The translations under genes and the position numbers were made by a program. A stretch of 64,000 bases of DNA from Candidatus Omnitrophota bacterium (GTDB lineage: Bacteria > Omnitrophota > Gorgyraeia > Aquiviventales > JACQRC01), in assembly GCA_016206665.1 (NCBI GenBank), contig JACQRC010000100.1, positions 33 through 64,032 on the forward strand. Reading direction: 5' to 3'. Below, in pieces: positions 10,089 through 64,000 of the stretch (its first letter is position 1; each line of letters begins with the position of its first letter). Below the pieces are notes generated by a model, which worked only from the letters and a program-made list of their open reading frames with translations, was not told where the DNA came from and made no database searches.

Positions 10089-11393
10089 ATGGACCTTTGT
10101 GTGATCGGGGCCGGACATGTCGGACTGGTGACCGGGGCCTGTTTCGCCGAATTAGGCCACCACGTCATCATCGTGGACAACGACGCGGCCAAGATTCGGC
10201 AGTTGAAGCGGGGTCGCCTGCCCTTCTTTGAGCCGGGGCTGGAGGAGCTGGTCCACCGGACCGTGGCGGAGCGGCGCCTGCGGTTCACCGCCACGCTGGC
10301 GGAAGGGGTGCGCGCCTCCCTCATCATCTTTATCGCCGTGGGGACGCCGCAGAAGCCCAGCGGGGAAGCCGACTTGACGCACGTTGAGCACGTCACGCGG
10401 GGGATCGCCGCTCATCTGACCGGCTACCGCCTCATCGTCGAGAAGTCCACGGTGCCCGTCGAGACGGGGCAGTGGATCCAGCACACGCTGCGGACCTACA
10501 CGCGGCGGAAGGTTCCCTTCGACGTCGCCTCCAACCCCGAATTTCTGCGGGAGGGGACCGCGATCCAAGACCTCCTGCATCCCGACCGGATCGTGCTCGG
10601 CGTCGAGACGGCGCGGGCCAAGGAGCTCCTGCTCCAGCTCTATAAACCGTTGAACGCCCCCCTCGTGGTCACCGACATCCGCTCCGCGGAATTGATCAAG
10701 CACGCCTCCAATTCCTTCCTCGCCACCAAGATCTCCTTCATCAACGCGATTGCGCGCCTCTGCGAGCTGGTCGGCGCCGACGTGGTGAAGGTGGCCGAGG
10801 GGATGGGCCTCGATCCGCGGATCGGCCCGGCGTTTCTTTCGGCCGGCCTGGGCTTCGGGGGCTTCTGCCTGCCCAAGGACATCGATGCCTTTGTCCATCT
10901 GGCCGACAAGGTGGGCTACGACTTCGCCCTGCTGAAGGCGGTCAAGCAGATCAATGACGAGGCGCGCGAGCACTTCGTCCGCAAGATCGAGCAGGCCCTC
11001 TGGGTGGTCAAGGACAAGACGATCGCCATCCTGGGGCTGTCCTTCAAACCGGATACCGACGACATGCGCTATGCCCCCGCGCTCGACGTTATCCGTGCAC
11101 TGCAGCATGACGGGGCACGCATCCGGGCCTTCGACCCGCAGGCCATGGCCCACGCCGACGGCCTGCTGCCGAAGGTGACGATGTGCCGCGACCCCTACGA
11201 CGCCGCCAAAGGGGCCGACTGCCTCGCCATCGTGACGGATTGGAACGAGTTCAAGGAGCTGGATTTCAAGCGGTTGAAGCGGTTGCTGCGGCAACCGCTC
11301 ATTGTCGACGGCCGCAACGTCTACGACGCGGCCGTCCTGCGTCGCCTGGGCTTCCGCTATATCAGCGTCGGCCGCCGCGACGTCAGCGCCTGA
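10089..11393 (+). CDS. ugd: UDP-glucose 6-dehydrogenase
   Basis: 434 aa. N-terminal MDLCVIGAGHVGLVTGACFAELGHHV Rossmann motif. Central GFGGFCLPKD catalytic-Cys motif. Typical UDP-glucose/GDP-mannose dehydrogenase family layout. Confidence 0.9.
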   Translation: MDLCVIGAGHVGLVTGACFAELGHHVIIVDNDAAKIRQLKRGRLPFFEPGLEELVHRTVAERRLRFTATLAEGVRASLIIFIAVGTPQKPSGEADLTHVEHVTRGIAAHLTGYRLIVEKSTVPVETGQWIQHTLRTYTRRKVPFDVASNPEFLREGTAIQDLLHPDRIVLGVETARAKELLLQLYKPLNAPLVVTDIRSAELIKHASNSFLATKISFINAIARLCELVGADVVKVAEGMGLDPRIGPAFLSAGLGFGGFCLPKDIDAFVHLADKVGYDFALLKAVKQINDEAREHFVRKIEQALWVVKDKTIAILGLSFKPDTDDMRYAPALDVIRALQHDGARIRAFDPQAMAHADGLLPKVTMCRDPYDAAKGADCLAIVTDWNEFKELDFKRLKRLLRQPLIVDGRNVYDAAVLRRLGFRYISVGRRDVSA

Positions 11394-11403
11394 CGGAACG
11401 TTC

Positions 11404-12720
11404 ATGGCCTCCACCTCCCTCACCCTCCTCCAACGCCGCCTGATGAGCCACCACGCCACGATTGGCATCGTCGGCTTGGGCTATGTGGGCCTACCGCTGG
11501 CGGTCGGCTTCGCGCGCGCCGGCTTTTCCGTCATCGGCATCGATGTGGATGCCAAGCGTGTGGCCGCGGTCAATCGGGGCGACTCCTACATCCTCGACAT
11601 TGCCGGAGCCGATCTGCGCCCGCTCGTGCGCGCAGGCTCGCTGCGCGCCACCGCCGAGGAGCGCGCGTTGGACCGCTGCGACGTGGTCATCATCTGCGTG
11701 CCCACGCCGTTGCGCAAGACCCGCGAGCCGGACATCTCCTTCATCGTCGACGCCGCCGACCGGATCGCGCGCCATCTGCACCGCGGAGAGCTGATCATCC
11801 TGGAGAGCACCACCTATCCCGGTACCACGGAGGAGTTGATTCTGCCCCGCCTGGACGGGCGCCGGTTCAAGGTGGGGCGGGACTTCTTCCTCGCCTTTTC
11901 GCCGGAGCGGGTGGACCCGGGCAACCGGCAGTTCACGACGACGAACATCCCGAAGGTGGTGGGGGGGCAGACGCCGCGCTGTTCGGCGCTCGCGAAGCGG
12001 CTCTATGAGCAGATCGTGCCGCGCGTCGTGACGGTGTCGTCGACCCGCGCCGCCGAGATGGTGAAGCTGCTCGAGAACACCTTCCGCAGCGTCAACATCG
12101 GCCTCGTCAACGAAATGGCCCTCATGTGCCACCGGTTGAATCTCAATGTCTGGGAGATTATCGACGCGGCCAAGACGAAGCCCTTCGGCTTCATGCCCTT
12201 CTACCCGGGGCCGGGGCTGGGCGGCCACTGCCTGCCGATCGATCCGATCTATCTATCGTGGAAGGCGCGGATGCACGGCTTCGAGGCGCGCTTCATCGAG
12301 CTGGCCGCGCAGGTCAACGAGTACATGCCGCACTACGTCGTGGAGCGGCTGGGCGCGGCGCTCAATGAGGCCGGCCAGGCCCTCAAGGGCTCGCGCGTGC
12401 TGTTGGTGGGCATGGCCTACAAGAAGAATGTGAACGATATCCGCGAATCGCCCGCGCTGGAGATTGCCAGACTGTTAGGCGAGCGGGGGGCGAGGGTGGC
12501 CTACCATGATCCGCATGTGCCGGGCCTGCGGCTCGACGCCGTCTCGCTGCGATCGCAACCGCTGACGCCGGCCCTGCTGAAGCGGCAGCAGGCCGTCGTC
12601 ATCGTGACCGATCATGACCGCGTCAACTATGCGCGCCTGTTGCAGCATGCCCGGCTGGTGCTCGACACGCGCAACCGTCTCCACGGCGTCCGGGGACGCG
12701 CCAAGGTGGTGACCCTATGA
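11404..12720 (+). CDS. Nucleotide-sugar dehydrogenase, UDP-N-acetyl-hexosamine 6-dehydrogenase-like (WbpO/TviB/WecC type)
   Basis: ORF track starts at 11302, but ATG 11404 lies after the ugd stop and gives ...IGIVGLGYVGLPLAVGFARAGFSVIGIDVD. GLGGHCLPIDP catalytic-Cys motif. Confidence 0.8.
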   Translation: MASTSLTLLQRRLMSHHATIGIVGLGYVGLPLAVGFARAGFSVIGIDVDAKRVAAVNRGDSYILDIAGADLRPLVRAGSLRATAEERALDRCDVVIICVPTPLRKTREPDISFIVDAADRIARHLHRGELIILESTTYPGTTEELILPRLDGRRFKVGRDFFLAFSPERVDPGNRQFTTTNIPKVVGGQTPRCSALAKRLYEQIVPRVVTVSSTRAAEMVKLLENTFRSVNIGLVNEMALMCHRLNLNVWEIIDAAKTKPFGFMPFYPGPGLGGHCLPIDPIYLSWKARMHGFEARFIELAAQVNEYMPHYVVERLGAALNEAGQALKGSRVLLVGMAYKKNVNDIRESPALEIARLLGERGARVAYHDPHVPGLRLDAVSLRSQPLTPALLKRQQAVVIVTDHDRVNYARLLQHARLVLDTRNRLHGVRGRAKVVTL

Positions 12721-13655
12721 GCCTCTACCTGGTGACCGGCGGGGCCGGCTTCATCGGTTCGCACGTCGTCGACCGCCTCGTGGCCGACGGCGAGCAGGTC
12801 CGCGTCTTGGATGACCTCTCGACGGGCACACTGGGCAACTTGGCCGGCGTGCGCGGCCGGATCGAGTTTGTGCAGGCCGACATCCGCGACCGCGCGGCGG
12901 TGGCTGCGGCGGTTCGCGGCGTGGACTACGTGATTCACGAGGCGGCGTGGCGCAGCGTGCCCAAGTCGATGAGCGATCCCTGGGGCTACACCGAGGTCAA
13001 CGTGTTAGGGACGGTCAATCTCTTGGAGGCGGCGGCCAAAGCCAAGGTGAAGCAGGTGGCCAGCGTCTCCTCCAGCTCGGTCTACGGGGAGACGACCGTC
13101 ATGCCCCTCCGGGAGGATCTGCCGGCCAGTCCGATCTCGCCGTACGCGGCCTCGAAGTTGGCGGCGGAATTGATGTGCGGGTTGTTCAGCCGGGGCTTTG
13201 GCCTGCCGGCGGTGTCGGTCCGGTACTTCAATGTCTTCGGCCCGCGGCAGAGCCTCGACAACGAATATGCCGTCGTGGTGCCCAAGTTCATCGTCTGTCT
13301 GCTGCGCGGCGAATCCCCGCCGGTCTACGGCGACGGCCAACAGTCCCGGGACTTCACCTACATCGACAACGTCGTGGAGGCGACCATCCTCGCGGCCCGG
13401 ACGCCGGGCATCGGCGGGGAGGTGCTCAACGTGGCCCTCGGTGAAGAGCATTCGGTGCTGGACCTGCTCCGGGAACTGAACGCCATCCTGGGCCTGTCCA
13501 TCCCTCCGTCCCTGCAGCCGCCGCGTCCCGGCGATGTGCGCCGCACGCTCGCCGATCCCGCCAAGGCGCAGCGTCTGCTGCGGTGGCGCGGCCGCGTCGC
13601 CTTCGCGGAAGGCCTGCGCCGCACCGCCGCGTGGTTCCAAACCCATTCCGTCTGA
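12717..13655 (+). CDS. NAD-dependent nucleotide-sugar epimerase (WbpP/TviC-like SDR)
   Basis: 312 aa. ATGA overlap with the upstream gene. [12 protein letters not shown] glycine motif. YAASKLAAE (YxxxK). Sits next to the HexNAc dehydrogenase-like gene, as in WbpO/WbpP and TviB/TviC pairs. Confidence 0.7.
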   Translation: MSLYLVTGGAGFIGSHVVDRLVADGEQVRVLDDLSTGTLGNLAGVRGRIEFVQADIRDRAAVAAAVRGVDYVIHEAAWRSVPKSMSDPWGYTEVNVLGTVNLLEAAAKAKVKQVASVSSSSVYGETTVMPLREDLPASPISPYAASKLAAELMCGLFSRGFGLPAVSVRYFNVFGPRQSLDNEYAVVVPKFIVCLLRGESPPVYGDGQQSRDFTYIDNVVEATILAARTPGIGGEVLNVALGEEHSVLDLLRELNAILGLSIPPSLQPPRPGDVRRTLADPAKAQRLLRWRGRVAFAEGLRRTAAWFQTHSV

Positions 13656-13664
13656 CGGCCGCCC

Positions 13665-14792
13665 ATGAGCGTACCCTTCTTCGACCTCCGCCGGCAGTAC
13701 CGCGTGCTGCGCCCGGCGATGGACGCAGCCCTGCGACGCGTCTGTGCCAGCGGCGCCTTCATCCTGGGCCCGGAGGGGCGGGCGCTGGAGTCTGAATTGG
13801 CGCGCCTCTGCTGGGTGCCGCACGCCGTGGGGACGGCTTCAGGCACGGACGCCCTTGAGCTGGCGTTGCAGGCGCTTGGCCTCGGGCCGGGCGATGAGGT
13901 CATCACGACTCCGCTGACCTTCATTGCGACCGCCCAGGCCATTTCGCATACGGGGGCACGGCCCGTCTTCGCCGATGTCGATCCTGTCACCGCGACCCTC
14001 GACCCCGCGCGAGTGGCGCGTGCGATGACGCGTCGCACACGGGCGATCCTGCCCGTCCATCTCTACGGCCAACCCTGTGACATGGCCCCGCTGTTGCGGT
14101 TGGCGAAGCGGCGGGGCTTGCACGTCGTCGAAGATTGTGCCCAGGCCATTGGGGCGACCTTTCAGGGGCGGCCGGTCGGTTCCTTCGGCGACGCGGGGGC
14201 CTTCAGCTTTTATCCGACGAAGAATCTGGGGGCGTACGGCGATGCCGGTGCGGTCGTGACACGCTCCCGGGGGCTTGCCGCGCGGCTGCGGATGCTGCGC
14301 CAGCATGGCAGCGCCGATCGGGTCCGCTATCCCATGCTCGGCCGGAACTCGCGCCTCGATGAGCTCCAGGCGGCGGTGCTGCGGGTCAAGCTGCGGCATC
14401 TGCGGGCGTGGAACGTGGCGCGTCGCCGGCATGCCGCCACCTATCGCCGGCTCTTCAGACGCGCGGGGATCGCGGGAGCAGTGGGGCTGCCCGCCGAGCG
14501 GGCCGGCAGGCAGCACGTCTACCATCACTTCGTGATTCGGGTGCGGCGACGGGATGCGCTGCAGCGATACCTGGAGGGGCGGGGGATCGGTTGCGGCATC
14601 TACTATGCGCCGCCGCTCCATCTTCAGCCGCTCTATCGGGTGCTGGGCTACCGGCGCGGCGAGTTCCCCGTTGCGGAACGATTCAGTCAGGAGATCCTCT
14701 CTCTGCCGATGTACCCTGAATTGACCGCGAGCCAGCTGAGCCGGGTGGTGGATGCGGTTCGTGCCTTCATGCAGCGGAGAAGTACCAGTTGA
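13665..14792 (+). CDS. DegT/DnrJ/EryC1/StrS-family PLP-dependent sugar aminotransferase
   Basis: 375 aa. Family-typical N-terminus VPFFDLRRQY...ILGPEGRALESELA, TASGTDALELAL, and FSFYPTKNLGAYGDAG with Lys. Confidence 0.85.
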   Translation: MSVPFFDLRRQYRVLRPAMDAALRRVCASGAFILGPEGRALESELARLCWVPHAVGTASGTDALELALQALGLGPGDEVITTPLTFIATAQAISHTGARPVFADVDPVTATLDPARVARAMTRRTRAILPVHLYGQPCDMAPLLRLAKRRGLHVVEDCAQAIGATFQGRPVGSFGDAGAFSFYPTKNLGAYGDAGAVVTRSRGLAARLRMLRQHGSADRVRYPMLGRNSRLDELQAAVLRVKLRHLRAWNVARRRHAATYRRLFRRAGIAGAVGLPAERAGRQHVYHHFVIRVRRRDALQRYLEGRGIGCGIYYAPPLHLQPLYRVLGYRRGEFPVAERFSQEILSLPMYPELTASQLSRVVDAVRAFMQRRSTS

Positions 14793-14818
14793 CGGTGTGG
14801 GCAGGGGTTATGTACAAT
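14789..14818 (+). promoter_or_regulatory. Sigma70-like promoter candidate TTGACG-N18-TACAAT
   Basis: TTGACG at 14789..14794 (contains the stop TGA of the upstream gene) and TACAAT at 14813..14818. Lies in a 66-bp AT-richer gap. RBS AAGGAG at 14838..14843. Confidence 0.45.
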
Positions 14819-14849: not shown

Positions 14850-14864
14850 GTTCAACAAATGAAC
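14850..14864. promoter_or_regulatory. Palindromic operator-like site GTTCA-ACAAA-TGAAC overlapping the uxs start codon
   Basis: Read directly. Same GTTCA-N5-TGAAC architecture as the sites at 42286..42300 and 42321..42335. ATG 14859 is embedded in the site. Confidence 0.5.
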
Positions 14865-15800
14865 ATGCGGGTGCTCATCACAGGGGGCGCAGGATTCATC
14901 GGCTCCCACCTGTGCGAACGATTCCTCGCCGAAGGCCACACCGTGCTGTGCCTGGATAACTTCCTGACCGGCTCTGATGCCAATATCGCCCACCTGAAGG
15001 GCCAGCCGCGCTTTCAGCTCATCTTGCATAACATCGCCCAGCCCCTCGAGGTCGGCGGGAGCCTGGCCTACGTGCTCCACTTCGCCTCACCCGCCAGTCC
15101 CGTTGATTACCTGAAATTCCCTATTCAAACGTTGAAGGTCGGCTCCCTCGGCACGCTGAATGCCTTGGGCATTGCCAAGGCGAAGCGGGCCAAATTTTTG
15201 CTCGCCTCCACCTCGGAAGTGTATGGCGACCCCCAAGTCCATCCTCAGCCGGAGAGTTATTGGGGGCACGTCAACCCGGTCGGACCGCGCGGCGTCTATG
15301 ACGAGGCCAAGCGCTTCGCCGAGGCGTTGACGATGGCGTATCACCGCGAGCACGGCCTCGATACGCGGATCGCGCGCATCTTCAACACCTACGGACCGCG
15401 GATGCGCTTGAATGATGGTCGGGCCGTTCCCACCTTCATTGCCCAGGCGCTGCGCGGCGAGCCGCTCACCGTCTTTGGGGACGGCCGGCAGACCCGCAGC
15501 TTCTGCTACATCGACGACCTCGTTGAGGGCCTCCGGCGCGTGATGGATGCCGCCGTCCATGAGCCGATCAACGTCGGCAATCCCGACGAGCGGTCGATTC
15601 TGGAGATCGCCCAGCAGGTGCTGGCTTCCTGCAACGGCACGCAGAGCCGCGTGGAGTTCCGCCCGTTGCCGGAGGATGATCCCAAGCAGCGCCGGCCCGA
15701 TATCTCGAAGATCACCCGCCTGACGGGCTGGCAGCCGCGGGTCAGCCTCGATGAGGGATTGCCGGCGACGGTCGCCTGGTTCCGAGAGCATTGGAACTGA
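14859..15800 (+). CDS. uxs: UDP-glucuronate decarboxylase (UDP-xylose synthase)
   Basis: 313 aa. [64 protein letters not shown]...[12 protein letters not shown] is the characteristic UXS block. Confidence 0.88.
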
Positions 15801-17728
15801 TGGCCACCCCTGTCGAAGCGCCGCCTGAGCCACCGATGACGAGCGGTCCGAGCACCCGCCCCAGGCGGTCAGCTGCTCGGGGTTGGCTGATGGTCCTCGC
15901 CAGCACGCTGCTCACCCTGCTGTTATTAGAGGGGGCGATGCGGCTCTGGCGGCCCCAAAGTGAGTATGCCATCACGTGGGCCCCCTGGGGTTTCATCCAT
16001 CAACCCAACGCGACCATCACCTATTACACCGAAAAGCCCCGCCCCGGCAGGAAAGACGACAGCGGCATCCCGCCGCATCCCGTCAAAATCCATTACAACG
16101 CTCATGGATTTCGTGAGTTCGACTACCCCTACGCGAAACCGCCAGGCACCTTCCGTATCCTCTTTCTGGGGGATTCCTGGGCGGAGGACATGGGCAGTTA
16201 CTTCGAGAATCTCCATACGAAACACTTGGAGCGGAAACTGAATGCCCTCGGGCTGCCCCAGAAGTTTGAGGTGATCAACGCCGGCCATTACGCTTATGAC
16301 AATGCGCAGGAGCTGATGCTCTACCTCAACGAAGGCATCAAGTTCCAGCCCGATCTGGTGACGGTGCTGTATGTGGGCGATACGGCCAAACCCGAGCTGG
16401 CGACCGTGGAGCAGGGCGAGCTGCGGCTGCACGACCAACGGTATACGCCAATACAGAAGTTCTACCGGGCCATCGTGACGTGGACTCGTTCCCACTCGCA
16501 CCTGGGCAGCTTTCTCCTGAATGAGCTCTACCGCGTCAAGCACATTCAGCAGTGGCTGGTGGCGCATAAATGGAAGGAAGCCCCGGTGCCGGTGCCGTCG
16601 GTGCACGTCGCAGTCGCCGCCGAGATGCCGCCCCAAGCGGCGCTCATCCCTGCGCCTGCCACACCGCCCAAGACAGCGGCGCCCGCCCCGGTAGTGCCAG
16701 CGCAACCCACAGCACCGTCGCGTGACCCGCTCGTTGGTGTACCGACAGGCGTCAATCTCCTGCTCAACAGCTCCTTCGGAAGCTGGTCGCTGGGCGATGA
16801 GGATGACCCCGACTACTGGGTGGCTGGCTTTACCACGCCAGGATTCTCAGTCAAACGTGCCGTGACCGATGCCCGTCACGGGCGCTCTGCTTGTCGTCTG
16901 ATCAATCAGACTCCCGACGGGTGCCGTCTCAGCCAGGACCCGGTGATGATGGTGGATCCGGCGGGGCAGCGGCTTCGCTGGACTCAACTGCGCGGGAAAA
17001 CCGTGACGGCCGGGTGCTGGGTCAAGACCTCGACCCCTGAGGCCGTTTGGCTCTTTCTTCATGATGGGATCAGCGGCGCCGAATCGCCGCGCCATTCCGG
17101 CAGCGGAGCGTGGGAGTTCCTCACCACGACCCTCAATGTGCCTGGTGCGGCGTCGTCACTCGATTACCGCGTCATGGTGGGCAAAGGTGCTACGGTGGAT
17201 GTGGACGCCGCGACGCTCGCGCTGGGCCGGCGACCCGCGCAGCCGTTCCTGCCGGAGGGGGAGGAAGCCGACCAGATCGCAGCCCACCGGACGAAGATCC
17301 GCGAGCAGCTCGCTGCAGCCCAGGGCACCCTGGTGCCGCCGTCGCAGCTGCCGGAAGAGCTGATCGAAGAACAGGATGCCGAGTTCGCGCTGGTTGACCA
17401 GTTGATCTGGAAGAAATTCCGGGACACGGCCAAGGCGCAGGGGGGGCAATTCATCTTCCTGTCCGTAAGCCCGCTGACGCCATCCGAGCGCCTGTTCTTG
17501 AAGGAAGCCGGGATTCCTTGGCTGAGCTTCAAGCTGCCCTTCAACCCGAATGAACGACGGCAGAAAGACCTGCTCGCCGGCCGGTATGATCCCAGCCAGG
17601 ACTCCCACCGGTTCGGCTACCAGGCCAATGCGGAGGTGGCCGAGCAGATGCTGCAGTACCTGAAGGCGCGCCAGTTCATCCCCATGCCACAGCCACAGCA
17701 TGAAGGCGCTGGTTCTCGCCGCCGGTGA
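15800..17728 (+). CDS. Membrane-anchored SGNH/GDSL-like hydrolase or acyltransferase with inserted Pro/Ala linker and CBM4/9-like carbohydrate-binding-type domain
   Basis: ORF track starts at TTG 15791. ATG 15800 overlaps the upstream stop (TGATG). One N-terminal TM helix (WLMVLASTLLTLLLLEGA). FRILFLGDSWAED (GDS block). P/A-rich linker. NLLLNSSFGSW...GKTVTAGCWVKT...ATVDVDAATLALG resembles CBM_4_9. C-terminal QDSHRFGY (Asp/His block). Confidence 0.45.
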   Translation: MATPVEAPPEPPMTSGPSTRPRRSAARGWLMVLASTLLTLLLLEGAMRLWRPQSEYAITWAPWGFIHQPNATITYYTEKPRPGRKDDSGIPPHPVKIHYNAHGFREFDYPYAKPPGTFRILFLGDSWAEDMGSYFENLHTKHLERKLNALGLPQKFEVINAGHYAYDNAQELMLYLNEGIKFQPDLVTVLYVGDTAKPELATVEQGELRLHDQRYTPIQKFYRAIVTWTRSHSHLGSFLLNELYRVKHIQQWLVAHKWKEAPVPVPSVHVAVAAEMPPQAALIPAPATPPKTAAPAPVVPAQPTAPSRDPLVGVPTGVNLLLNSSFGSWSLGDEDDPDYWVAGFTTPGFSVKRAVTDARHGRSACRLINQTPDGCRLSQDPVMMVDPAGQRLRWTQLRGKTVTAGCWVKTSTPEAVWLFLHDGISGAESPRHSGSGAWEFLTTTLNVPGAASSLDYRVMVGKGATVDVDAATLALGRRPAQPFLPEGEEADQIAAHRTKIREQLAAAQGTLVPPSQLPEELIEEQDAEFALVDQLIWKKFRDTAKAQGGQFIFLSVSPLTPSERLFLKEAGIPWLSFKLPFNPNERRQKDLLAGRYDPSQDSHRFGYQANAEVAEQMLQYLKARQFIPMPQPQHEGAGSRRR

Positions 17729-18419
17729 AGGGCGCCGGCTGGGCGCCTTGACGGCCGACCGGCCGAAGCCGATGCTCCCGATCGGAGGCGTTCCGGTCCT
17801 GGAGCGGACCCTGCGGTGGCTGGCGCTGCACGGCATCCGGCAGATTGCCATCAATCTGCACCATCAGCCGCACACCATCCGCGCCCATGTGGGCGACGGC
17901 CGGCCGTTCGGTGTCCAGGCGACCTACTCGCTGGAACCCCGGCTGCTGGGCACGGCGGGTGCCGTCCGGCCCCTCGCCCGATGGCTGGATGAGCCGTTTC
18001 TGGTCGTGTATGGCGATAACCTGTTCGAGATCGACCTGACCGCCTTCATCGCCTCACACCGACGGCACGGCGGCGACGGCACCATCGCCCTGCATCATCG
18101 CGAGGACCCCACCGCCAGCGGGATCGCCGCCCTCGATGGCGAGGGACGCCTCACGCGGTTTGTGGAAAAACCGTCGCCCGACCAGGTCTTCAGCCATTGG
18201 GTGAGCGCCGGCCTCATGGTCTGGGAACCGCGGGTGGTGGCCGACATTCCTACCACCATTCCCTGCGACTGGGGGCGGGATCTGCTACCCCAGTGGGCCA
18301 CGGCCAAACGGATCTATGGGTACCAGCTGCCACCCACCGACCGCATCTGGTGGATGGATACGCCGGAGGATTACGCGCGCGCCCAGGCGGCCTTCGCCGC
18401 CACGGCACACACCAGCTAA
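17700..18419 (+). CDS. hddC: Sugar-1-phosphate nucleotidylyltransferase, D-glycero-alpha-D-manno-heptose-1-phosphate guanylyltransferase-like
   Basis: 239 aa. MKALVLAAGEGRRLG...DRPKPMLPIGG signature of NTP-transferase family. Sits adjacent to gmhA and near the hddA-like kinase. Confidence 0.6.
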   Translation: MKALVLAAGEGRRLGALTADRPKPMLPIGGVPVLERTLRWLALHGIRQIAINLHHQPHTIRAHVGDGRPFGVQATYSLEPRLLGTAGAVRPLARWLDEPFLVVYGDNLFEIDLTAFIASHRRHGGDGTIALHHREDPTASGIAALDGEGRLTRFVEKPSPDQVFSHWVSAGLMVWEPRVVADIPTTIPCDWGRDLLPQWATAKRIYGYQLPPTDRIWWMDTPEDYARAQAAFAATAHTS

Positions 18420-42320: not shown

Positions 42321-42335
42321 GTTCATTTAATGAAC
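42321..42335. promoter_or_regulatory. Palindromic operator-like site GTTCAT-TTA-ATGAAC overlapping the regulator start codon
   Basis: Read directly. 6-bp perfect inverted arms. ATG 42330 is embedded in the site. Confidence 0.55.
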
Positions 42336-58017: not shown

Positions 58018-59807
58018 GCCTGATTCGTGAGCTGTTCAAGAAATTCCCGGCTCTGCTGATCGGCAATATCGCCTTATTGGTCATCGAAAGCGCCCTCGCC
58101 ATCCTGGCGCTGTTCAGCATCGCGCCGGCGATCGATCTGTTCCTGGCGCCGAATCTCCAACAGGCCAGCCCCATCACGCGACACCTCGCTTCATGGATGC
58201 AGGCAGCGGGGTTGCCGGTGACACTGGCGAGTTGCCTGTTAGTGGCATTCGGACTGTTTGCGCTGAAGAACGGGCTGACCATCTTCATCCGGTACCGGCT
58301 GCTGCAGACGAAATACGCCGTGCTGCGGGAGCTGATGCTCGGGAGTTTCGAGGATTTCTTCAATGCGCGCTGGCTCTTCTTCAGCGGCCAAAGCCAGGGC
58401 ACGCTGCTCAACACCTTTCTGCGCGAGATGATGATGGTGGGGGATGCGTTTGGGGCGCTGGCCTGGCTGAGCGCGGCGGCCTTCCAGCTTGCTGGCACGT
58501 TGGTGGTACCGTGCGTGGTCTCGTGGCGGGTCACGGCGTGGAGCCTGGGTGCCGCGGTCCTCTTCGCCCTGCCCGGCTGGTGGTTGAGCCGTCTCAGTTA
58601 CCGATTGGGGCAGCAGAATGTCACGACCGCCAACCGCATCGGCGTCGTCATCCAGGAAAGTCTGGGCGCGGCCAAGGTCATCCTCGGCTTCGGGAATCCG
58701 GAGACGCAGCGCCGGCACCTGGGCCAGGCCTTTGACGCCCACCGTCGGGTGACGGTGCCGTCGCAGCTGATGAATGTGGCGACACCGCTCTTGTATGAGC
58801 CGTTTGGGCTGCTCGTGATCGTCATCGCGCTGGGCGTGGCACGACACTACGCGGTGCCCCTCGCGGACACCGCGGTGCTGCTGTGGGCGCTGCGCTCGTG
58901 CGTGCCATTGCTCGGGGCGATCACCATGCAGCGCAACGCCCTCGCGAACTTCGTGCCCAGTTACGAGCAGGTCCAGCGGTTGCGCGCGCAGGCGCAATCG
59001 TGGCGGCAGCCAACGGGGACACGGCCGTTTACCGGACTCCAGCGCGGGATGACCCTGGAGCGGCTGACCTTCACCTATCCGGGCCGCGAGGCGGCGCTGG
59101 TCGACGTGACCCTGCGGATCCCGCGTGGCCGGGTGGTGGCTATCGTGGGTGAGTCGGGCAGCGGTAAGTCGACCTTGCTGGATCTACTCCTCGGGCTGCA
59201 TGAACCGGCGGCAGGGCAGATCCTGGTGGATGATAGGCCGTTCGGCGAGCTCGACCTGCTGACCTTTCGCCGACGCGTCGGCTACGTGCCGCAGGACACG
59301 GTCTTGTTCAACCTCTCGGTGCGCGACAACCTGCGATGGGCTCATGCGGAGGCCACCAATGGGGAGATCGAGGAAGCCTGCCGGCGCGCGCATGCCGACG
59401 AATTCATCACGCGGTTGCCGCAGGGCTACGACACGCTGGTGGGTGACCGGGGGGTGCGCCTCTCGGGCGGGCAGTGTCAGCGGCTCGCGCTCGCGCGCGC
59501 CCTGGTGCGCCGGCCCGACCTGCTCATCCTCGATGAGGCGACGAGCGCGCTCGATACCCGCTCGGAACGCTTGATTCAGGAAGCCCTCGAAGCGTTAGGC
59601 GGCCAGACCACGGTGGTCGTGGTCGCGCATCGGCTGTCAACCATCGTCAACGCCGATCACATTTATGTCCTGGATCGCGGGCGTCTCGCTGAGGACGGCA
59701 CCTATGCCGAGCTCATGGGGCGCGATGGATTGTTCAAACTGATGGTGCAGCGCCAGGCGCTGGAGGCGGCGTCGCCGGAAGAGCCGGCGCTGTCGCGCGC
59801 GCCGTAA
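58014..59807 (+). CDS. ABC exporter, fused permease + ATPase (MsbA/PglK-type)
   Basis: ORF track starts at 57861. In-frame ATGs at 58005 and 58014, the latter overlapping the upstream stop (ATGA). Six N-terminal TM helices. Walker A GESGSGKST. Signature LSGGQCQRLALARAL. Walker B LLILDEATSALD. Confidence 0.85.
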   Translation: MSLIRELFKKFPALLIGNIALLVIESALAILALFSIAPAIDLFLAPNLQQASPITRHLASWMQAAGLPVTLASCLLVAFGLFALKNGLTIFIRYRLLQTKYAVLRELMLGSFEDFFNARWLFFSGQSQGTLLNTFLREMMMVGDAFGALAWLSAAAFQLAGTLVVPCVVSWRVTAWSLGAAVLFALPGWWLSRLSYRLGQQNVTTANRIGVVIQESLGAAKVILGFGNPETQRRHLGQAFDAHRRVTVPSQLMNVATPLLYEPFGLLVIVIALGVARHYAVPLADTAVLLWALRSCVPLLGAITMQRNALANFVPSYEQVQRLRAQAQSWRQPTGTRPFTGLQRGMTLERLTFTYPGREAALVDVTLRIPRGRVVAIVGESGSGKSTLLDLLLGLHEPAAGQILVDDRPFGELDLLTFRRRVGYVPQDTVLFNLSVRDNLRWAHAEATNGEIEEACRRAHADEFITRLPQGYDTLVGDRGVRLSGGQCQRLALARALVRRPDLLILDEATSALDTRSERLIQEALEALGGQTTVVVVAHRLSTIVNADHIYVLDRGRLAEDGTYAELMGRDGLFKLMVQRQALEAASPEEPALSRAP

Positions 59808-59837: not shown

Positions 59838-60893
59838 GTGAACCGCTACACGTTCCTGGACGGCAAGAGCGTGCTGATCACCGGTGGCACGGGCTCCTTT
59901 GGCCAGAAGTTCACGGAGCTGCTGCTGCATGAGAGCCGGGTCAAGACGTTGCGCATCTACTCGCGCGACGAGCTCAAGCAGCACGAGATGAACCGGCGGC
60001 TCACCGATGAGCGGCTCCGTTTCCTCATCGGGGATGTCCGGGACAAGGAGCGGCTGAGCCGGGCCATGCGCGGCGTGGATTACGTCATCCATGCGGCGGC
60101 GCTCAAGCAGGTGCCGACCTGCGAGTACAACCCTTTCGAAGCCGTCAAGACCAACATCCTCGGCGCGGAGAACCTCATTGACGTGGCCATCGACTGCGGG
60201 GTGTCGCGGGTGATGGCCTTAAGCTCTGACAAGGCGGTCAACCCGGTCAACCTCTACGGGGCGACCAAACTCTGCGCGGAAAAGCTCTTCGTGCAGGGCA
60301 ACGCCTACGTTGGCTCCGGCGGCACGCGCTTCAGCTGCGCGCGCTACGGCAATGTCGTCGGCTCGCGAGGGAGCGTCATCCCCACCTTTTTGCACCAGCG
60401 GACGACCGGCACGGTGACGGTCACCGACCAGCGGATGACGCGATTCTGGATCACGCTGGAGGAGGGGGCTCGTTTCGTGCTCCGGTGCCTGGAGACGATG
60501 CACGGCGGCGAGATCTTCGTGCCCAAGATTCCGCGCATGAGCATCATGGATTTGGTGCAGGCCGTGGCCCCCGCGTGCGAGGTCAAGGTCACCGGTATCC
60601 GTCCGGGTGAAAAGCTGCACGAGCTCTTGATCTCGACGGATGAGGGGCGGCACACCCTCGAATTCGAAGACCACTTCGTCATCCAGCCGCTCCATCCGTG
60701 GTGGAAAGTGGAGAACTGGTCGGACGGGGTGCCCTTGGCGGACGGCTTCACATATGCCAGCAATACCTTTCCGGACCAGCTCAGCGTCGATGCGCTGCGG
60801 ACGATGGTGGCGGAGCAGGAGATCGAGCTGGAGCAGCGCGGCGGCGGGCCTGCCGCCGGCGTTGAGCGTGAGTCGGTGGAAGAGGAGGCGTAA
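59838..60893 (+). CDS. pseB: UDP-N-acetylglucosamine 4,6-dehydratase (inverting), PseB/FlaA1-like
   Basis: 351 aa. GTG start after AAGGAGGGG. SVLITGGTGSFGQKF...RIYSRDELKQHEM...FLIGDVRDKERL...HAAALKQVPTCEYNPFEAVKTNILGAENL...LSSDKAVNPVNLYGATKLCAEK. Confidence 0.8.
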   Translation: MNRYTFLDGKSVLITGGTGSFGQKFTELLLHESRVKTLRIYSRDELKQHEMNRRLTDERLRFLIGDVRDKERLSRAMRGVDYVIHAAALKQVPTCEYNPFEAVKTNILGAENLIDVAIDCGVSRVMALSSDKAVNPVNLYGATKLCAEKLFVQGNAYVGSGGTRFSCARYGNVVGSRGSVIPTFLHQRTTGTVTVTDQRMTRFWITLEEGARFVLRCLETMHGGEIFVPKIPRMSIMDLVQAVAPACEVKVTGIRPGEKLHELLISTDEGRHTLEFEDHFVIQPLHPWWKVENWSDGVPLADGFTYASNTFPDQLSVDALRTMVAEQEIELEQRGGGPAAGVERESVEEEA

Positions 60894-60899: not shown

Positions 60900-62114
60900 G
60901 TGGTGAGGGTTCAAACCGCACCGAAATCCGAGTTGGCGCTGCACGGGGGAGTACCGGTCCGCCGGACCCTGCTGCCGTACGCCCGACACACCGTGACAGA
61001 GGCTGACATCGAAGCGGTGGCGGCGGTACTGCGCTCCAGCCGATTGACGACCGGGCCGAAGGTCGCCGAGTTCGAGGAGGCGGTCTCATCCTACGTGAGG
61101 GCGCGTGAGGCCGTGGCCTTCAGTTCGGGGACGGCCGCGCTGCATGCGGCTGCGTTTGCCGCCGGGCTGGGGCCGGGCGACGAAGCGGTGACGACGCCGC
61201 TGACCTTCTGTGCCACGGCGAACGCGGCGCTGTATCAGGGCGCGCGGCCCGCCTTTGCCGATGTGCGCGACGACACGTTGAATCTCGACCCTGCCGCGGT
61301 GGAAGCGAGGCTCACTCCGCGCACGAAGGCGGTCCTGCCGGTGGATTATGCGGGCCATCCGGCTGATCTGGAGGCATTGCTGGCTCTGGCGGCGCGGCAG
61401 GGGCTCACCGTTATCGAGGACGCCTGTCATGCGCTGGGAGCGGCCGACCGCGGGCGCAAGGTTGGCGGGATCAGCCACATGACGGTCTTCAGTTTTCATC
61501 CGATCAAGGCGATCACCACCGGCGAGGGGGGGATGGTGACGACGAATGAGGCCGCATTGGCCAAGCGGCTGCGGTTGTTCCGCAATCATGGCATCGACAG
61601 CGACCCCAATGCGCGCCAGGCGTCGGGAGCCTGGTTCTACGAGATGACGGCGCTCGGCTTCAACTACCGGTTGACCGACCTGGGCTGTGCGCTGGGTCTC
61701 TCGCAGTTGTCGCGGCTTGATGCGGCACTGGCTCATCGGCGCGCGATTGCCCTGCGATACCTGCAGGCCTTCGCGGCGCATCCGGAGCTCGTCCTGCCAG
61801 CCGTGCGTCCGGAGAGCGAGAGCGCGTGGCATCTGTTTCCCGTGCGGCTGGTGCTGGAACGGTTGAGCGCCGATCGGGCCGAGATCATCAGAGCGCTTCA
61901 CGCCGAAGGCATCGGCGTCAATGTGCACTATCTGCCGGTCTATCGGCATCCGTATTATGTGGAACGATTCGGCGACCAGGCCGGGACCTGCCCGGTGGCC
62001 GAGGCTGCCTACGAGCGGCTGATCAGCCTGCCGCTTTTCGCCGGGATGACAGACCAGGACGTGGAGGATGTGATTCGCGCCGTGACCAAGGTGTGCGCCG
62101 CCTATGCCCGCTAA
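60900..62114 (+). CDS. pseC: UDP-4-amino-4,6-dideoxy-hexosamine transaminase, PseC-like (DegT family)
   Basis: 404 aa. GTG start. LLPYARHTVTEADIEAVAAVLRSSRLTTGPKVAEFEEAV... FSFHPIKAITTGEGG (Lys). Lies immediately downstream of the pseB-like gene. Confidence 0.7.
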   Translation: MVRVQTAPKSELALHGGVPVRRTLLPYARHTVTEADIEAVAAVLRSSRLTTGPKVAEFEEAVSSYVRAREAVAFSSGTAALHAAAFAAGLGPGDEAVTTPLTFCATANAALYQGARPAFADVRDDTLNLDPAAVEARLTPRTKAVLPVDYAGHPADLEALLALAARQGLTVIEDACHALGAADRGRKVGGISHMTVFSFHPIKAITTGEGGMVTTNEAALAKRLRLFRNHGIDSDPNARQASGAWFYEMTALGFNYRLTDLGCALGLSQLSRLDAALAHRRAIALRYLQAFAAHPELVLPAVRPESESAWHLFPVRLVLERLSADRAEIIRALHAEGIGVNVHYLPVYRHPYYVERFGDQAGTCPVAEAAYERLISLPLFAGMTDQDVEDVIRAVTKVCAAYAR

Positions 62115-63117
62115 GATCGCGACAGCCCTGCGCACCGCGGTCATCGGGTGCGGCTCGATCGGGTTGCGCCACCTGCGCAATTTGCATCGGCTGGGCTGGG
62201 ATGATCTGGTTGTCTGGGATCCGCAGGCCGACCGGCGTGCGGAGGCCCGGCGGGCGTGTGGTGCGCGTCCCGCCGTTTCATTGGCTGACGCCGTAGGTGG
62301 CGGCGCTCAGGTCGCGTTCGTCACGACGCCGACGGCACTGCATCTTCCGGCGGCGCTTGAGGCGGCGCGGGCCGGGTGCCATCTCTTTATCGAGAAGCCG
62401 TTGTCGCACACCGCCGAAGGGCTGGAGGAGCTGGTGGAGAAGGTGCGCCGCCACCAGCTCATCACGCTCGTCGGCTGCAACATGCGGTTCCACCACGGGC
62501 CGGCGACGATCAAACGATTGCTGGACGAGGGTGCGGTGGGCCGCGTCATCTCCGCCAGCTTCGATGCGGGGCAGTATCTGCCGGATTGGCATCCGGAGCA
62601 GGATTATCGCCAACAGTACAGCGCGCGGCGGGCGTTGGGGGGCGGGGTGGTCCTCGACGGCATTCATGAACTCGATCTGGCGCGGTGGTTCTTCGGCGAG
62701 GTGGCCGAGGCCTTCGCCTACGGAGGACACCGCAGCTCGCTCGAGATTGATGTCGAGGACACGGCGGATATCCTGTTGAAATTTCAGCGCGGCGCCTCGG
62801 CGACGGTGCATCTTGATTATGTCCAACGGGTGTATGGGCGGCGGTGCAAGGTGATCGGCGAGCAGGGCACGATCCTGTGGGATATGACCGAGGGGTCGGT
62901 TCGGCTTTATACAGCCTCCACGCGTGGTTGGCAGGAATTTCCTCCGCCAGCCGGCTATACGGTGAATGACATGTATGTGGCCGAGTTGCAGCATTTCCTG
63001 CGGTGTCTTGAAGGCACGGAGCAGCCAATGCAGGATCTTCACGAAGCGCGGCAGGCGCTGCACCTGGCGCTCGCCGTACAATCCTCTCTCGATACCGGCT
63101 CGGCCGTGCGCCCATGA
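62104..63117 (+). CDS. Gfo/Idh/MocA-family oxidoreductase
   Basis: 337 aa. LRTAVIGCGSIGLRHLRNL...LFIEKPLS. Confidence 0.75.
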   Translation: MPAKIATALRTAVIGCGSIGLRHLRNLHRLGWDDLVVWDPQADRRAEARRACGARPAVSLADAVGGGAQVAFVTTPTALHLPAALEAARAGCHLFIEKPLSHTAEGLEELVEKVRRHQLITLVGCNMRFHHGPATIKRLLDEGAVGRVISASFDAGQYLPDWHPEQDYRQQYSARRALGGGVVLDGIHELDLARWFFGEVAEAFAYGGHRSSLEIDVEDTADILLKFQRGASATVHLDYVQRVYGRRCKVIGEQGTILWDMTEGSVRLYTASTRGWQEFPPPAGYTVNDMYVAELQHFLRCLEGTEQPMQDLHEARQALHLALAVQSSLDTGSAVRP

Positions 63118-64000
63118 AGGCCCAGGCCGCGACCAGGAAAGTGGTGGCAATTTTGCAGGCCCGTGTCGGGTCCACACGGCTGCCGGGCAAGGTGCTGGCC
63201 GATATTTGCGGACAGCCGATGTTGTGGCACCAGATGCAGCGCATCAAGCTCGCGCGGCGTATCGATGAGCTGGTCTTGGCGACCACGGCGCAGCCCGAGG
63301 ACCAGCCACTGGCAGCCCTGGCAAAGACGGCCGGTATTCCCGTCTTCCTCGGCTCGAGTGAGGACGTCCTCGACCGGTATTACCAGGCCGCCACCAAACA
63401 CGCAGCGGAGTTAATCGTCCGCCTGACGGGTGACTGCCCGCTGATTGATCCCACCGTGATTGATACGGTCGTCGAATATGCGCAAACCCATGCGGTGGAT
63501 TACGTCGGCACCGGTTGGGATTTCCCCGATGGCCTTGACGTGGAAGTCTTCACCATGGAAGCGTTGGAGCGGGCCTGGAGGGAGGCGGCGAAACCCTCGG
63601 AGCGCGAGCACGTGGCCCTCTACATGAACAGCACGGGACGGTTTCGGACGCACCGGCTCAGCGCCGGACGAGATCTGGCTGCGCACCGCTGGGTCGTGGA
63701 CGAGCCGGACGATCTGGAGGCGATACGCCGCATCTATGAAGCCCTGTATCCTGCCCAGGGCCACCGGTTCACCACGGAGGATATCCTGCGGCTGTTGGCG
63801 GCAGACCCCTCCATCCAGGCGCTCAACGGCCATATCGCACGCAACGACGGTTTATTGCAGTCCTGGAAGCGCGAGCGACCGTCCGGCTTGCCGCGGCGGC
63901 ATCCGTTGGCGCGCTCCGAGGAACTCTGGCAGCGTGCGGCCCGCATCATTCCTGCCGGCACACAGACCATGAGCAAGGGGCCGACACAATATGTGGGTGG
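63114..64000 (+). CDS. SpsF/FlmC-type cytidylyltransferase-fold protein continuing in frame into what looks like the N-terminus of a class-III (glutamate-1-semialdehyde aminomutase-like) aminotransferase; 3' end outside the window
   Basis: Not in the ORF track because no stop is reached. ATG 63114 overlaps the upstream stop (ATGA). My translation: MKAQAATRKVVAILQARVGSTRLPGKVLADICGQPMLWHQMQRI...IVRLTGDCPLIDPTVID (SpsF motifs). The frame stays open through ...SEELWQRAARIIPAGTQTMSKGPTQYVG at the window edge. Confidence 0.7.
   Translation, partial: MKAQAATRKVVAILQARVGSTRLPGKVLADICGQPMLWHQMQRIKLARRIDELVLATTAQPEDQPLAALAKTAGIPVFLGSSEDVLDRYYQAATKHAAELIVRLTGDCPLIDPTVIDTVVEYAQTHAVDYVGTGWDFPDGLDVEVFTMEALERAWREAAKPSEREHVALYMNSTGRFRTHRLSAGRDLAAHRWVVDEPDDLEAIRRIYEALYPAQGHRFTTEDILRLLAADPSIQALNGHIARNDGLLQSWKRERPSGLPRRHPLARSEELWQRAARIIPAGTQTMSKGPTQYVG

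Follow-up and report, generated by a model that had tools for sequence, protein, structure and literature searches.

Very large glycan loci have been described in Leptospira, in which 22 representative rfb loci specify 1,714 proteins, ~78 genes each on average, and are bounded by a MarR-family gene (PMC10958091). Two further systems, both from actinomycete antibiotic clusters, are relevant here. The E1-type proteins AviB1/AviB2 (avilamycin) and Pau11/Pau12 (paulomycin) are proposed to carry out a pyruvate-derived C-acetyl branching of keto-sugars, after which a ketoreductase acts (PMC4753412). The octose of the lincosamides is made by a transaldolase (LmbR), an isomerase (LmbN), a kinase (LmbP), a phosphatase (LmbK) and a nucleotidyltransferase (LmbO) (PMC4351081 Table 2; PMC12945683), the resulting GDP-octose being processed by LmbM, LmbL (a 'dehydrogenase'), LmbZ (an 'oxidoreductase') and the aminotransferase LmbS (PMC4351081; PMC12945683); the sugar genes are grouped in a compact sub-cluster whose neighbours overlap by 4 bp, as in the locus considered here (PMC7014725). 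The stretch of DNA analysed (64,000 nucleotides, hereafter the window) is nearly the whole of a 64,080-bp contig, JACQRC010000100.1, from a metagenome-assembled genome (MAG) of Candidatus Omnitrophica. From position 10089 to position 64000 (~54 kb) it contains 46 consecutive plus-strand genes (G1–G46), the last of which is open at the window end. This region is, with good confidence, a modular super-locus for the biosynthesis of cell-envelope glycans in Candidatus Omnitrophica (Omnitrophota), cut by the contig end. Within it, the cassette G29–G39, together with G27, G28 and G40, is tentatively proposed to specify a widespread new pathway leading to an aminated, C2-extended or C2-branched, methylated higher-carbon nucleoside diphosphate (NDP)-sugar with a heptose or octose skeleton, by way of a Gfo/Idh/MocA oxidoreductase paired with a dehydrogenase-like protein devoid of the catalytic Cys.

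The cassette was compared with other genomes by searching for G37 homologs and aligning, with tblastn, the ~20-kb contexts of five loci (L162 and L164–L167). At least 120 proteins were found with 61–76% identity to G37, and G29–G39 proved syntenic across unrelated metagenome assemblies, at 46–79% identity. In L165 the genes G29–G39 occur in identical order (46–75% identity), while L164 contains G30–G39 (53–79%) followed by a G41 homolog (44%). In L162 and L166 the cassette core encloses HAD and transaldolase genes (plus a SIS gene in L162), the transaldolase gene lying downstream of that for E1 beta in both, and L167 has DegT-DegT-E1 alpha-E1 beta alone. In the four contexts containing homologs of both G32 and G33 (L162, L164–L166), the former was in every case immediately upstream of the latter. 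The thiamine diphosphate (ThDP) motif of G37 is intact, and no E2, E3 or lipoyl domain was found in the window or in the five 20-kb contexts. The fusion protein G31 scored below the HldE cut-offs. Two other features of the related loci were observed: B12-binding radical-SAM (S-adenosylmethionine) enzymes, which are candidate C-methyltransferases, follow the E1 cassette in L162 (15042–16706) and L164 (14003–16105), and in L164 and L165 the first DegT protein has a NUDIX domain either fused to it or encoded beside it; neither feature occurs in the window.

The presence of a Gfo/Idh/MocA oxidoreductase, a dehydrogenase and two DegT aminotransferases had led an initial annotation of the locus to propose a WbpB-type route to an amino- or diamino-uronate. 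If this were correct, G32–G36 would form a WbpA/B/E-type pathway to a UDP-2,3-diamino-2,3-dideoxy-uronate, and the E1 pair would be an unrelated decoration. The Pfam families do match those of WbpA (UDPG_MGDP_dh), WbpB (Gfo/Idh/MocA) and WbpE (DegT). However, in G33 and in all four of its orthologs an Asn occupies the position of the catalytic Cys (GGGN-IPRD in G33 versus GGFCLPKD in G1), which makes uronate formation impossible by the canonical mechanism; G33 would catalyse at most a single oxidation. An exhaustive search yielded 1,269 cluster representatives of the G33 family at E ≤ 1e-30, and in the top 150 of these the Cys column contained Asn in 123, His in 19 and Cys in just one. Members of this branch mostly have Ser or Thr in place of the second Gly in the Rossmann motif. 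No solved structure for the Cys-less branch was present among the PDB sequence matches. WbpB was likewise absent from the PDB matches of G32, which were generic Gfo proteins scoring ≤48 bits, and no Pfam match to the WbpD N-acetyltransferase or WbpI 2-epimerase families was obtained in the window. In unrelated genomes, moreover, these genes are syntenic with those for an HldE-like protein, a transaldolase, SIS and HAD proteins and the E1 pair. The uronate route is thus very improbable, and this part of the initial annotation was abandoned. The Cys-less G33, the missing WbpB signal and the conserved synteny indicate instead that G32–G36 are part of one pathway that starts at the HldE-like G31 and makes use of transaldolase, SIS and HAD enzymes.

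For the higher-carbon sugar pathway proposed above, the following order of reactions can be envisaged. The starting compound would be a phospho-heptose-type sugar derived from sedoheptulose-7-P, or an octulose phosphate built by the transaldolase. This sugar phosphate would be isomerised by G8, and G31 would phosphorylate it at C1 and nucleotidylate it, with G27 as the phosphatase. The short-chain dehydrogenase/reductase (SDR) proteins G29, G30 and G34 might epimerise the NDP-sugar, and the G32/G33 pair might oxidise or dehydrate it; G35 and G36 would aminate it, the G37/G38 E1 pair would add a two-carbon unit from pyruvate, and G39 and G40 would methylate and reduce the product, respectively. 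Were this so, reactions hitherto described solely for actinomycete antibiotics (those leading to the lincosamide octose and to the avilamycin/paulomycin C-acetyl group) would extend to bacterial surface glycans, and the Cys-less dehydrogenase-like proteins would constitute a new functional subfamily. The product could then represent a novel type of surface sugar, a suggestion to be taken as tentatively as the pathway itself. The labels under which G33- and G37-type proteins are annotated, i.e. nucleotide-sugar dehydrogenase and pyruvate dehydrogenase, are probably misleading. More generally, pattern matching at the Pfam level (Gfo plus dehydrogenase plus DegT equated with a 'WbpB pathway') can mis-assign sugar pathways.

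Genes were called by combining stop-to-stop open reading frames (ORFs), codon-position GC (third-position GC) and start-codon context; all features are listed in Table 1. The coding density was 99.7% across 10089–64000, and 28 of the 45 junctions overlap, 19 of them by 4 bp (ATGA/GTGA), 4 by 1 bp (TGATG/TAATG) and 5 by 8–29 bp. Just two gaps exceed 40 bp, one ahead of G5 (66 bp) and one ahead of G26 (56 bp), although the NCBI start for G6, which is 30 codons downstream (giving 612 amino acids, aa), would create a third of 89 bp. Minus-strand ORFs of at least 100 aa all lie inside plus-strand genes, almost all with a shadow-frame pattern (low GC1, high GC2), and the 64-kb window contains no tRNA genes or Rfam matches. 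The architecture given in the initial annotation was therefore borne out, both in the ~46 co-directional genes spanning ~54 kb up to the window end and in the two gaps above 40 bp and the more than 25 overlapping start/stop junctions. The same holds for its counts of four methyltransferase domains (the C-terminus of G20, G22, G23 and G39), one carbamoyltransferase, two SGNH-like proteins and an E1 alpha/beta pair. Its view of the locus as exceptionally large was overstated, considering the average of the Leptospira rfb loci: large co-directional glycan loci are already known, and the size of this one is not exceptional.

As the source is a MAG, the co-directional array might be an assembly chimera of several loci. 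This is highly improbable, however. GC content is flat along the window (0.63–0.69), and tetranucleotide composition is even, the profiles of 8-kb segments over 8–64 kb correlating with r values of 0.94–0.98. Reading frames overlap at the module borders, the junctions contain no repeats or mobile elements, and the gene order within sub-cassettes is matched by independently assembled contigs. In addition, an independent Logan contig (2.4 kb) reproduces the last 2.3 kb of the window (61711–64000) at 99.3% identity and extends it by 85 bp. At the level of the sequence, then, neither composition, frames nor synteny gave any sign of a chimera. An exact-protein look-up for a longer copy of the locus returned one 2.4-kb Logan contig for G45 and none for G37; the closest relatives reached 57% at best among GTDB species representatives and 62% at best among the JGI metagenomes. 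The best matches of G45 had pointed to Chloroflexota, but such an origin was discarded: G37, G20 and G6 each have an exact NCBI match from Candidatus Omnitrophica, and the near homologs of the lineage-specific G6 are confined to Omnitrophica MAGs.

The modules recognised for activating or modifying sugars number at least seven and include those for UDP-glucuronic acid (UDP-GlcA) and UDP-xylose (UDP-Xyl), a UDP-N-acetylhexosamine (HexNAc) uronate with an aminotransferase, an HddA/HddC-type sugar with a carbamoyltransferase, CDP-hexose 3-deoxygenation with a mutase homolog, the cassette G29–G39, and the start of a pseudaminic acid (Pse)-type pathway. Five of the six pathways called initially survived the profile searches, with varying strength, the uronate route discussed above being the one lost; the initial annotation had overlooked G16 (the mutase homolog), G31 (HldE-like) and G26 (the regulator), as well as the transport and membrane-glycosyltransferase logic. 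The case for ugd plus uxs is strong, since G1 passed TIGR03026 with its catalytic Cys motif (GGFCLPKD) intact and G5 scored 375 bits to human UXS1. The possibility that G30 was the UDP-xylose synthase (UXS) was discarded, G30 being GalE/WbpP-like and G5 the UXS. The proposed WbpO/WbpP-like pair held at the family level, G2 being WecC/TviB-like (best equivalogs UDP-ManNAc dehydrogenase, 283 bits, and TviB, 245 bits; Cys kept in GGHCLPID) and G3 WbgU/WbpP-like, each with more than 200 bits. For the gmhA/hddA/gmhB/hddC set the best or near-best matches agreed at the family level, but none reached its curated cut-off (GmhA 78 bits against 209, HddA 163 against 600, GmhB 134 against 178, HddC 71 against 300); judged from these matches, a GDP-heptose-type route for G7, G8, G10 and G27 is plausible. 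The carbamoyltransferase G9 sits between the SIS isomerase G8 and the GHMP kinase G10 of this module. The lipopolysaccharide (LPS) core of Pseudomonas aeruginosa contains 7-O-carbamoyl-heptose, and by analogy it is a reasonable guess that G9 yields a carbamoylated heptose.

The call of an rfbF/rfbG/rfbH set for a CDP-3,6-dideoxyhexose was supported. RfbF (G14) and RfbH (G18) scored above their cut-offs, and G18 shows both the replacement of the pyridoxal 5′-phosphate (PLP) Lys by His and the CxCx7C Fe-S motif; RfbG was the best match of G17, below the cut-off, and the E3 reductase was not found (see below). The product of G16 aligned almost over its full length (residues 5–441 of 446 with 11–465 of 484; 132 bits) with the UDP-galactopyranose mutase of T. 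cruzi (4dsg). Given this near-full-length alignment to UDP-galactopyranose mutases, two other identities considered for G16, amine oxidase and the E3 reductase otherwise lacking, were rejected, and a furanose sugar is likely. Its position between rfbF and rfbG/rfbH hints at a furanose CDP- or UDP-sugar; the NCBIfam family bears the name 'hypothetical protein PRK07208'.

The pseB/pseC-like, nonulosonate-type route received support from PseB (G43) and PseC (G44), both above the cut-offs, while the synthase would lie beyond the contig, although in relatives it is found downstream of the cassette. The block G43–G46 recurs in many phyla, and in the relatives L006, L009 and L026 it continues with PseG-like, GNAT and NeuB genes. 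The incomplete G46 protein scored 99.6 bits with CTP_transf_3, and its NCBIfam matches were weak and KdsB-type, none being PseF-type. Sequence L001 (1404–2375) lengthens it to 324 aa, with 52% identity to a fused homolog of 688 aa. The class-III aminotransferase of this cassette is often fused to the cytidylyltransferase in relatives (L006, 4260–6326; L026, 10993–13068), G46 being the fused form. In many phyla the Pse-type cassette includes an extra Gfo/Idh/MocA oxidoreductase, and its class-III aminotransferase is of the glutamate-semialdehyde type; the two additional enzymes suggest a modified nonulosonate or an additional amino substituent.

Regarding assembly, there are four cytoplasmic Leloir-type glycosyltransferases (G11, G19, the GT2 domain of G20, and G41), together with polyprenyl-phosphate-sugar synthase and membrane GT-C components (G13 with G12, the G21 fusion, and G24). 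The G20 protein contains a Polysacc_synt domain (residues 26–291; 47.6 bits, cut-off 28.2), a GT2 domain (528–730) and a methyltransferase domain (864–1012), with 10 transmembrane (TM) helices in residues 1–480; a search at E ≤ 1e-20 in a 5.8-billion-sequence collection returned no homolog other than G20 itself. The sole ABC protein of the window is G42, and no Wzm/Wzt (ABC-2) pair was found in it. Oligosaccharide units would be built in the cytoplasm, attached to a polyprenyl carrier, and then flipped outward, and the GT-C enzymes would decorate them outside the membrane using lipid-linked monosaccharides. The final acceptor is most likely an O-antigen- or capsule-like polysaccharide, a surface glycoprotein also being possible. 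Among the tailoring proteins, G6 has one N-terminal TM helix, a GDS at residues 124–126 and a borderline GDSL_2 match (E 0.049); its close homologs are confined to Omnitrophica MAGs, and distant ones carry PF13472 plus PF16822 (GDSL_2/AlgX). Its role is probably that of an O-acyl transferase or an esterase acting on glycans. PDB sequence searches with G6, G12 and G24 gave no match.

Transcription of the array would start upstream of G1, G5 and G26, producing three units: G1–G4, G5–G25 and G26 onward. The two best sigma70-like matches (10/12) fall in the gaps ahead of G1 and G5, while intrinsic terminator-like sites occurred at chance level, none of them inside a gap. The window contains three copies of the palindrome GTTCAT-N3-ATGAAC, compared with an expectation of 0.02; two of them lie in the AT-rich gap ahead of G26 and one covers the G5 start codon. 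When the shorter form GTTCA-N5-TGAAC was sought in 2.2 Mb of other loci, all eight exact copies lay 26–95 bp upstream of G26 homologs, in several phyla (at 1232/1247 in L116, 298/313 in L117, 4011 in L003, 1638 in L139 and, for L134/L016, 7274). This form is probably the conserved operator of the G26 regulator family, as its placement suggests. G26 would bind the palindromes at G5 and G26, regulating its own expression and controlling the G5–G25 unit. A regulator/operator pair of this MarR-EPS (exopolysaccharide) type, conserved across phyla, could help to delimit glycan operons in metagenomes.

The three probable transcription units are one of several observations in line with the idea that independent glycan systems (a polymer, a decoration by lipid-linked monosaccharides, and a nonulosonate) stand side by side, with a common orientation and perhaps common regulation. 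There are two export devices (the Wzx domain of G20 and the ABC exporter G42), the Pse-type cassette and G29–G39 are each found alone in other genomes, and the number of sugar modules contrasts with that of the Leloir-type glycosyltransferases in the window. The near-complete coding density tells against this separation, as do the overlapping junctions, some of which are between modules (G40|G41, G41|G42), the presence of one regulator motif at both internal gaps, and the existence in Leptospira of large single O-antigen loci of ~78 genes. An arrangement of several systems is quite possible if short of probable, and in terms of sequence it is compatible with the super-locus being a single modular region.

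Upstream of G1 lie four further plus-strand genes (U1–U4, positions 10–10019). U1 and U2 encode proteins with signal peptides, 16–17% Thr and DUF11 surface repeats; U1 (17% Thr, signal-peptide-like N-terminus) matched TIGR01451 with 32 bits (cut-off 24). The N-termini of both have 'TWDGGGGD...ANW' in common; reading these as autotransporter repeats was unsupported in Pfam and NCBIfam, which matched DUF11 repeats alone. U4 had no family match in Pfam or NCBIfam profile searches, and because it is extremely rich in Q, R, E and A, a strong A-over-T skew is seen at 8–10 kb. U1–U4 are possible glycoprotein substrates, or might form a surface structure. The locus could then be a protein O-glycosylation system (for an S-layer or adhesin) in which the PMT_2-type G12 and G24 glycosylate Ser/Thr residues of the Thr-rich DUF11 proteins U1–U3. 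Consistent with this, U1 and U2 are on the same strand directly upstream, and the two PMT_2 GT-C proteins pair with polyprenyl-phosphate-sugar synthases whose best NCBIfam match is the archaeal S-layer glycosyltransferase AglJ. Clusters for S-layer glycans are frequently located next to the gene of the structural protein, and some include GDP-heptose genes (Aneurinibacillus). Nevertheless, adjacency is the sole link to U1–U4, a promoter-like site of its own lies between U4 and G1, the PMT_2 matches are weak (26–31 bits, no PDB relative) and this family also includes ArnT-type enzymes that modify lipid A and glycans; no PglB-, PglL- or AglB-type oligosaccharyltransferase was found in the window. 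Protein O-glycosylation is accordingly an unlikely function for the locus.

Several observations weigh against the super-locus and cassette interpretations. In Pfam searches with the 50 proteins of the window, no initiating phosphoglycosyltransferase (Bac_transf, Glycos_transf_4), no Wzy polymerase or chain-length regulator (Wzy_C, O-antigen-polymerase, Wzz), and no O-antigen ligase or oligosaccharyltransferase was detected. These assembly genes may be located past the end of the contig or at another site. No N-acyltransferase (N-acetyl-, N-acyl- or N-formyl-) was found in the window despite the four DegT aminotransferases (G4, G35, G36 and G44), so that the amino sugars may be free or N-methylated, or the acyltransferases may be off-contig. 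There is no E3 reductase beside RfbH (none of the window's proteins matched Fer2, FAD_binding_6 or NAD_binding_1), and most of the heptose-route assignments score below curated cut-offs. The chemistry ascribed to G27–G40 is a family-level analogy, no characterised member having been found in the literature, and the roles given to promoters and operators are read from sequence patterns.

Table 1. Features of the 64-kb window, with the assignment of each and the profile or structure matches behind it
Feature	Coordinates	Strand	Assignment
U1	10..2532	+	Secreted Thr/Gly-rich surface protein, DUF11-type repeat; start possibly upstream of window
U2	2773..5337	+	Secreted surface protein paralogous to U1; DUF11, SdrD_B
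U3	5416..8751	+	Secreted 1111-aa protein without assigned family; signal-peptide-like N-terminus; weak Glucodextran_B match
U4	8748..10019	+	Secreted Q/R/E/A-rich coiled-coil protein; start overlaps U3 stop (ATGA)
Promoter candidate	10034..10062	+	sigma70-like, TTGCAA-17-TATAAT; 10/12 match; 69-bp U4|G1 gap
G1	10089..11393	+	UDP-glucose 6-dehydrogenase, Ugd/TuaD-like; TIGR03026 449 bits (passes cut-off), TuaD 549 bits
G2	11404..12720	+	UDP-HexNAc 6-dehydrogenase, WecC/TviB/WbpO-like; TIGR03026 442 bits
G3	12717..13655	+	UDP-HexNAc(A) 4-epimerase, WbgU/WbpP/TviC-like; PDB WbgU 206, WbpP 201; TviC 193 bits
G4	13665..14792	+	DegT-family sugar aminotransferase; Pfam 404 bits; PLP Lys kept
Promoter candidate	14789..14818	+	sigma70-like, TTGACG-18-TACAAT; 10/12 match; G4|G5 gap
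Operator-like palindrome	14850..14864	+	GTTCAAcaaATGAAC; overlaps G5 start codon
G5	14859..15800	+	UDP-glucuronate decarboxylase (UDP-xylose synthase); 375 bits, E 3e-111 to human UXS1
G6	15800..17728	+	Membrane-anchored SGNH/AlgX-like protein with inserted domain
G7	17700..18419	+	ManC/HddC-like sugar-1-phosphate nucleotidyltransferase; NTP_transferase 124 bits; ManC-type 128 and HddC 71 bits, both below cut-off
G8	18433..19086	+	SIS-domain sugar-phosphate isomerase, GmhA-like; SIS_2; GmhA 78 bits, below cut-off
G9	19109..20977	+	NodU/CmcH-type carbamoyltransferase; Carbam_trans_N 179 bits, Carbam_trans_C 246 bits
G10	20974..21963	+	GHMP sugar kinase, HddA-like; HddA best match, 163 bits, below cut-off
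G11	21960..23294	+	GT4 glycosyltransferase
G12	23291..24952	+	GT-C membrane glycosyltransferase, PMT_2/ArnT-type; PMT_2 31.5 bits; at least 7 TM helices
G13	24949..25653	+	Small GT2, polyprenyl-phosphate sugar synthase type (AglJ/DPM/PpgS/ArnC-like)
G14	25665..26456	+	Glucose-1-phosphate cytidylyltransferase RfbF; TIGR02623 344 bits (cut-off 300)
G15	26453..27424	+	SDR epimerase/reductase
G16	27417..28757	+	FAD enzyme, eukaryote-type UDP-galactopyranose mutase homolog; candidate nucleotide-sugar pyranose/furanose mutase
G17	28758..29792	+	CDP-glucose 4,6-dehydratase-like, RfbG; TIGR02622 best match, 222 bits, below 278 cut-off
G18	29801..31153	+	CDP-4-keto-6-deoxyglucose 3-dehydrase RfbH/E1; 605 bits (cut-off 423)
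G19	31161..32183	+	GT2 glycosyltransferase
G20	32180..35581	+	Putative Wzx-type flippase + GT2 + SAM methyltransferase fusion; 1133 aa, one ORF
G21	35586..37925	+	GT2 (polyprenyl-phosphate sugar synthase type) fused to 6-TM GtrII-like domain; Glucos_trans_II E 3e-4
G22	37925..38644	+	SAM methyltransferase
G23	38641..39573	+	SAM methyltransferase
G24	39570..40970	+	Second GT-C (PMT_2); 26.1 bits, at cut-off; 8 TM helices
G25	40981..42273	+	Membrane-anchored SGNH hydrolase/acyltransferase; GDSL_2 33.4 bits (passes Pfam); GGND and DVIH blocks
Operator-like palindrome	42286..42300	+	GTTCATcatATGAAC; site 1, G25|G26 gap
Operator-like palindrome	42321..42335	+	GTTCATttaATGAAC; site 2, overlaps G26 start codon
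G26	42330..42962	+	MarR/winged helix-turn-helix EPS-associated regulator; HTH_24; TIGR04176 71.5 bits, below 88 cut-off
G27	42959..43525	+	HAD-IIIA sugar bisphosphate phosphatase, GmhB-like
G28	43513..44262	+	Transaldolase; TIGR02134 330 bits (cut-off 282); accessory to cassette
G29	44259..45257	+	SDR, opens cassette; 75% identity, syntenic in L165
G30	45254..46258	+	GalE/WbpP-like SDR epimerase; 69–75% identity in L164, L165
G31	46258..47805	+	Nucleotidyltransferase + PfkB sugar-kinase fusion, HldE domains reversed; 64–72% identity in L162, L164, L165
G32	47805..48728	+	Gfo/Idh/MocA oxidoreductase
G33	48725..49978	+	UDP-glucose-dehydrogenase-like protein, Asn at catalytic Cys position
G34	49981..50898	+	Divergent SDR without YxxxK
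G35	50895..52076	+	DegT aminotransferase, PLP Lys kept
G36	52073..53224	+	DegT aminotransferase, PLP Lys kept
G37	53221..54180	+	ThDP-dependent E1 alpha; E1_dh 243 bits; PDH E1a 294 bits, below 394 cut-off
G38	54177..55202	+	E1 beta subunit; 69–79% identity in five contexts
G39	55221..55934	+	SAM methyltransferase, last conserved cassette gene
G40	55959..56852	+	SDR reductase-like, candidate ketoreductase; accessory to cassette
G41	56842..58017	+	TIGR04372-family glycosyltransferase; 202 bits (cut-off 45)
G42	58014..59807	+	Fused ABC exporter (transmembrane and nucleotide-binding domains; ABC_membrane + ABC_tran), HepA/MsbA/PglK-like
G43	59838..60893	+	UDP-GlcNAc 4,6-dehydratase, inverting (PseB); 478 bits (cut-off 408)
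G44	60900..62114	+	PseC aminotransferase; 466 bits (cut-off 424)
G45	62104..63117	+	Gfo/Idh/MocA oxidoreductase, member of conserved Pse-type cassette
G46	63114..64000	+	CTP_transf_3 cytidylyltransferase fused to class-III aminotransferase; cut at window and contig end

The locus is informative mainly because Omnitrophota is an uncultured phylum with a little-charted envelope chemistry. In general organisation it resembles the Leptospira rfb region, a very large and dense locus for the LPS O-antigen that also has a MarR-family gene. Almost all genes of the Leptospira rfb loci point in one direction, and many of them are sugar-nucleotide, DegT, SDR or nonulosonate genes. The likeness is one of size and content, between different phyla; moreover, the acceptor is known in Leptospira (LPS), and the MarR-family gene of the present locus lies inside the array with its own conserved palindrome. 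All nucleotide-sugar modules other than G29–G39 belong to known pathway families, and cytoplasmic assembly, flipping and extracytoplasmic decoration by GT-C enzymes are a standard overall logic. The CDP-sugar block shares with the rfbF/G/H/I (ddhA-D) genes of Salmonella and Yersinia the RfbF and RfbH equivalogs, the His and CxCx7C signature of RfbH and a G17 whose best match is RfbG, but differs from these CDP-3,6-dideoxyhexose genes in having no RfbI/DdhD and in the insertion of the SDR G15 and the mutase homolog G16. The last block begins like the Pse pathway of Campylobacter and Helicobacter (PseB, C, H, G, I, F), with PseB and PseC above the cut-offs and PseG-like, GNAT and NeuB genes added in relatives; unlike that pathway, it includes the extra Gfo/Idh/MocA protein G45 and the fused G46, and the contig ends before PseG, PseH and PseI. 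The small GT2 synthases (G13 and the N-terminus of G21), accompanied by GT-C or GtrII-like proteins (G12, G24 and the C-terminus of G21), recall the Gtr and Arn systems (GtrB with a Gtr-type transferase; ArnC with ArnT), although no GtrA-type flippase was identified and G21 fuses synthase and membrane transferase.

The features further from known systems are the cassette G29–G39, the mutase homolog within the CDP-sugar block, the G20 fusion and the conserved operator. A literature search on E1/DegT/heptose cassettes and on E1 pairs in O-antigen clusters returned nothing relevant. As in the case of AviB1/AviB2 and Pau11/Pau12, the E1 alpha/beta pair occurs without E2 or E3 among sugar-nucleotide enzymes and is followed by a candidate ketoreductase SDR; YerE, of the yersiniose pathway, can be named as a functional analogue of such a C2-branching pair. 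The resemblance is in gene content, and differs in that the actinomycete proteins belong to antibiotic clusters and act on a 2,6-dideoxyhexose, whereas the pair described here is encoded among surface-glycan genes in a Gram-negative lineage without cultured members, and its substrate is probably heptose-type. Comparing lists of roles alone, the lincosamide route has family-level counterparts in G28, G8, G31, G27, G33, G32 and G35/G36. LmbL and LmbZ, which we take to be members of the UDP-glucose-dehydrogenase and Gfo/Idh/MocA families, would correspond to G33 and G32. Unlike the lincosamide route, the cassette has its kinase and nucleotidyltransferase fused in an HldE-like protein and is enlarged by the E1 pair, one more aminotransferase and a methyltransferase; and while the lincosamide octose enters an antibiotic, the product of the cassette would enter a glycan.

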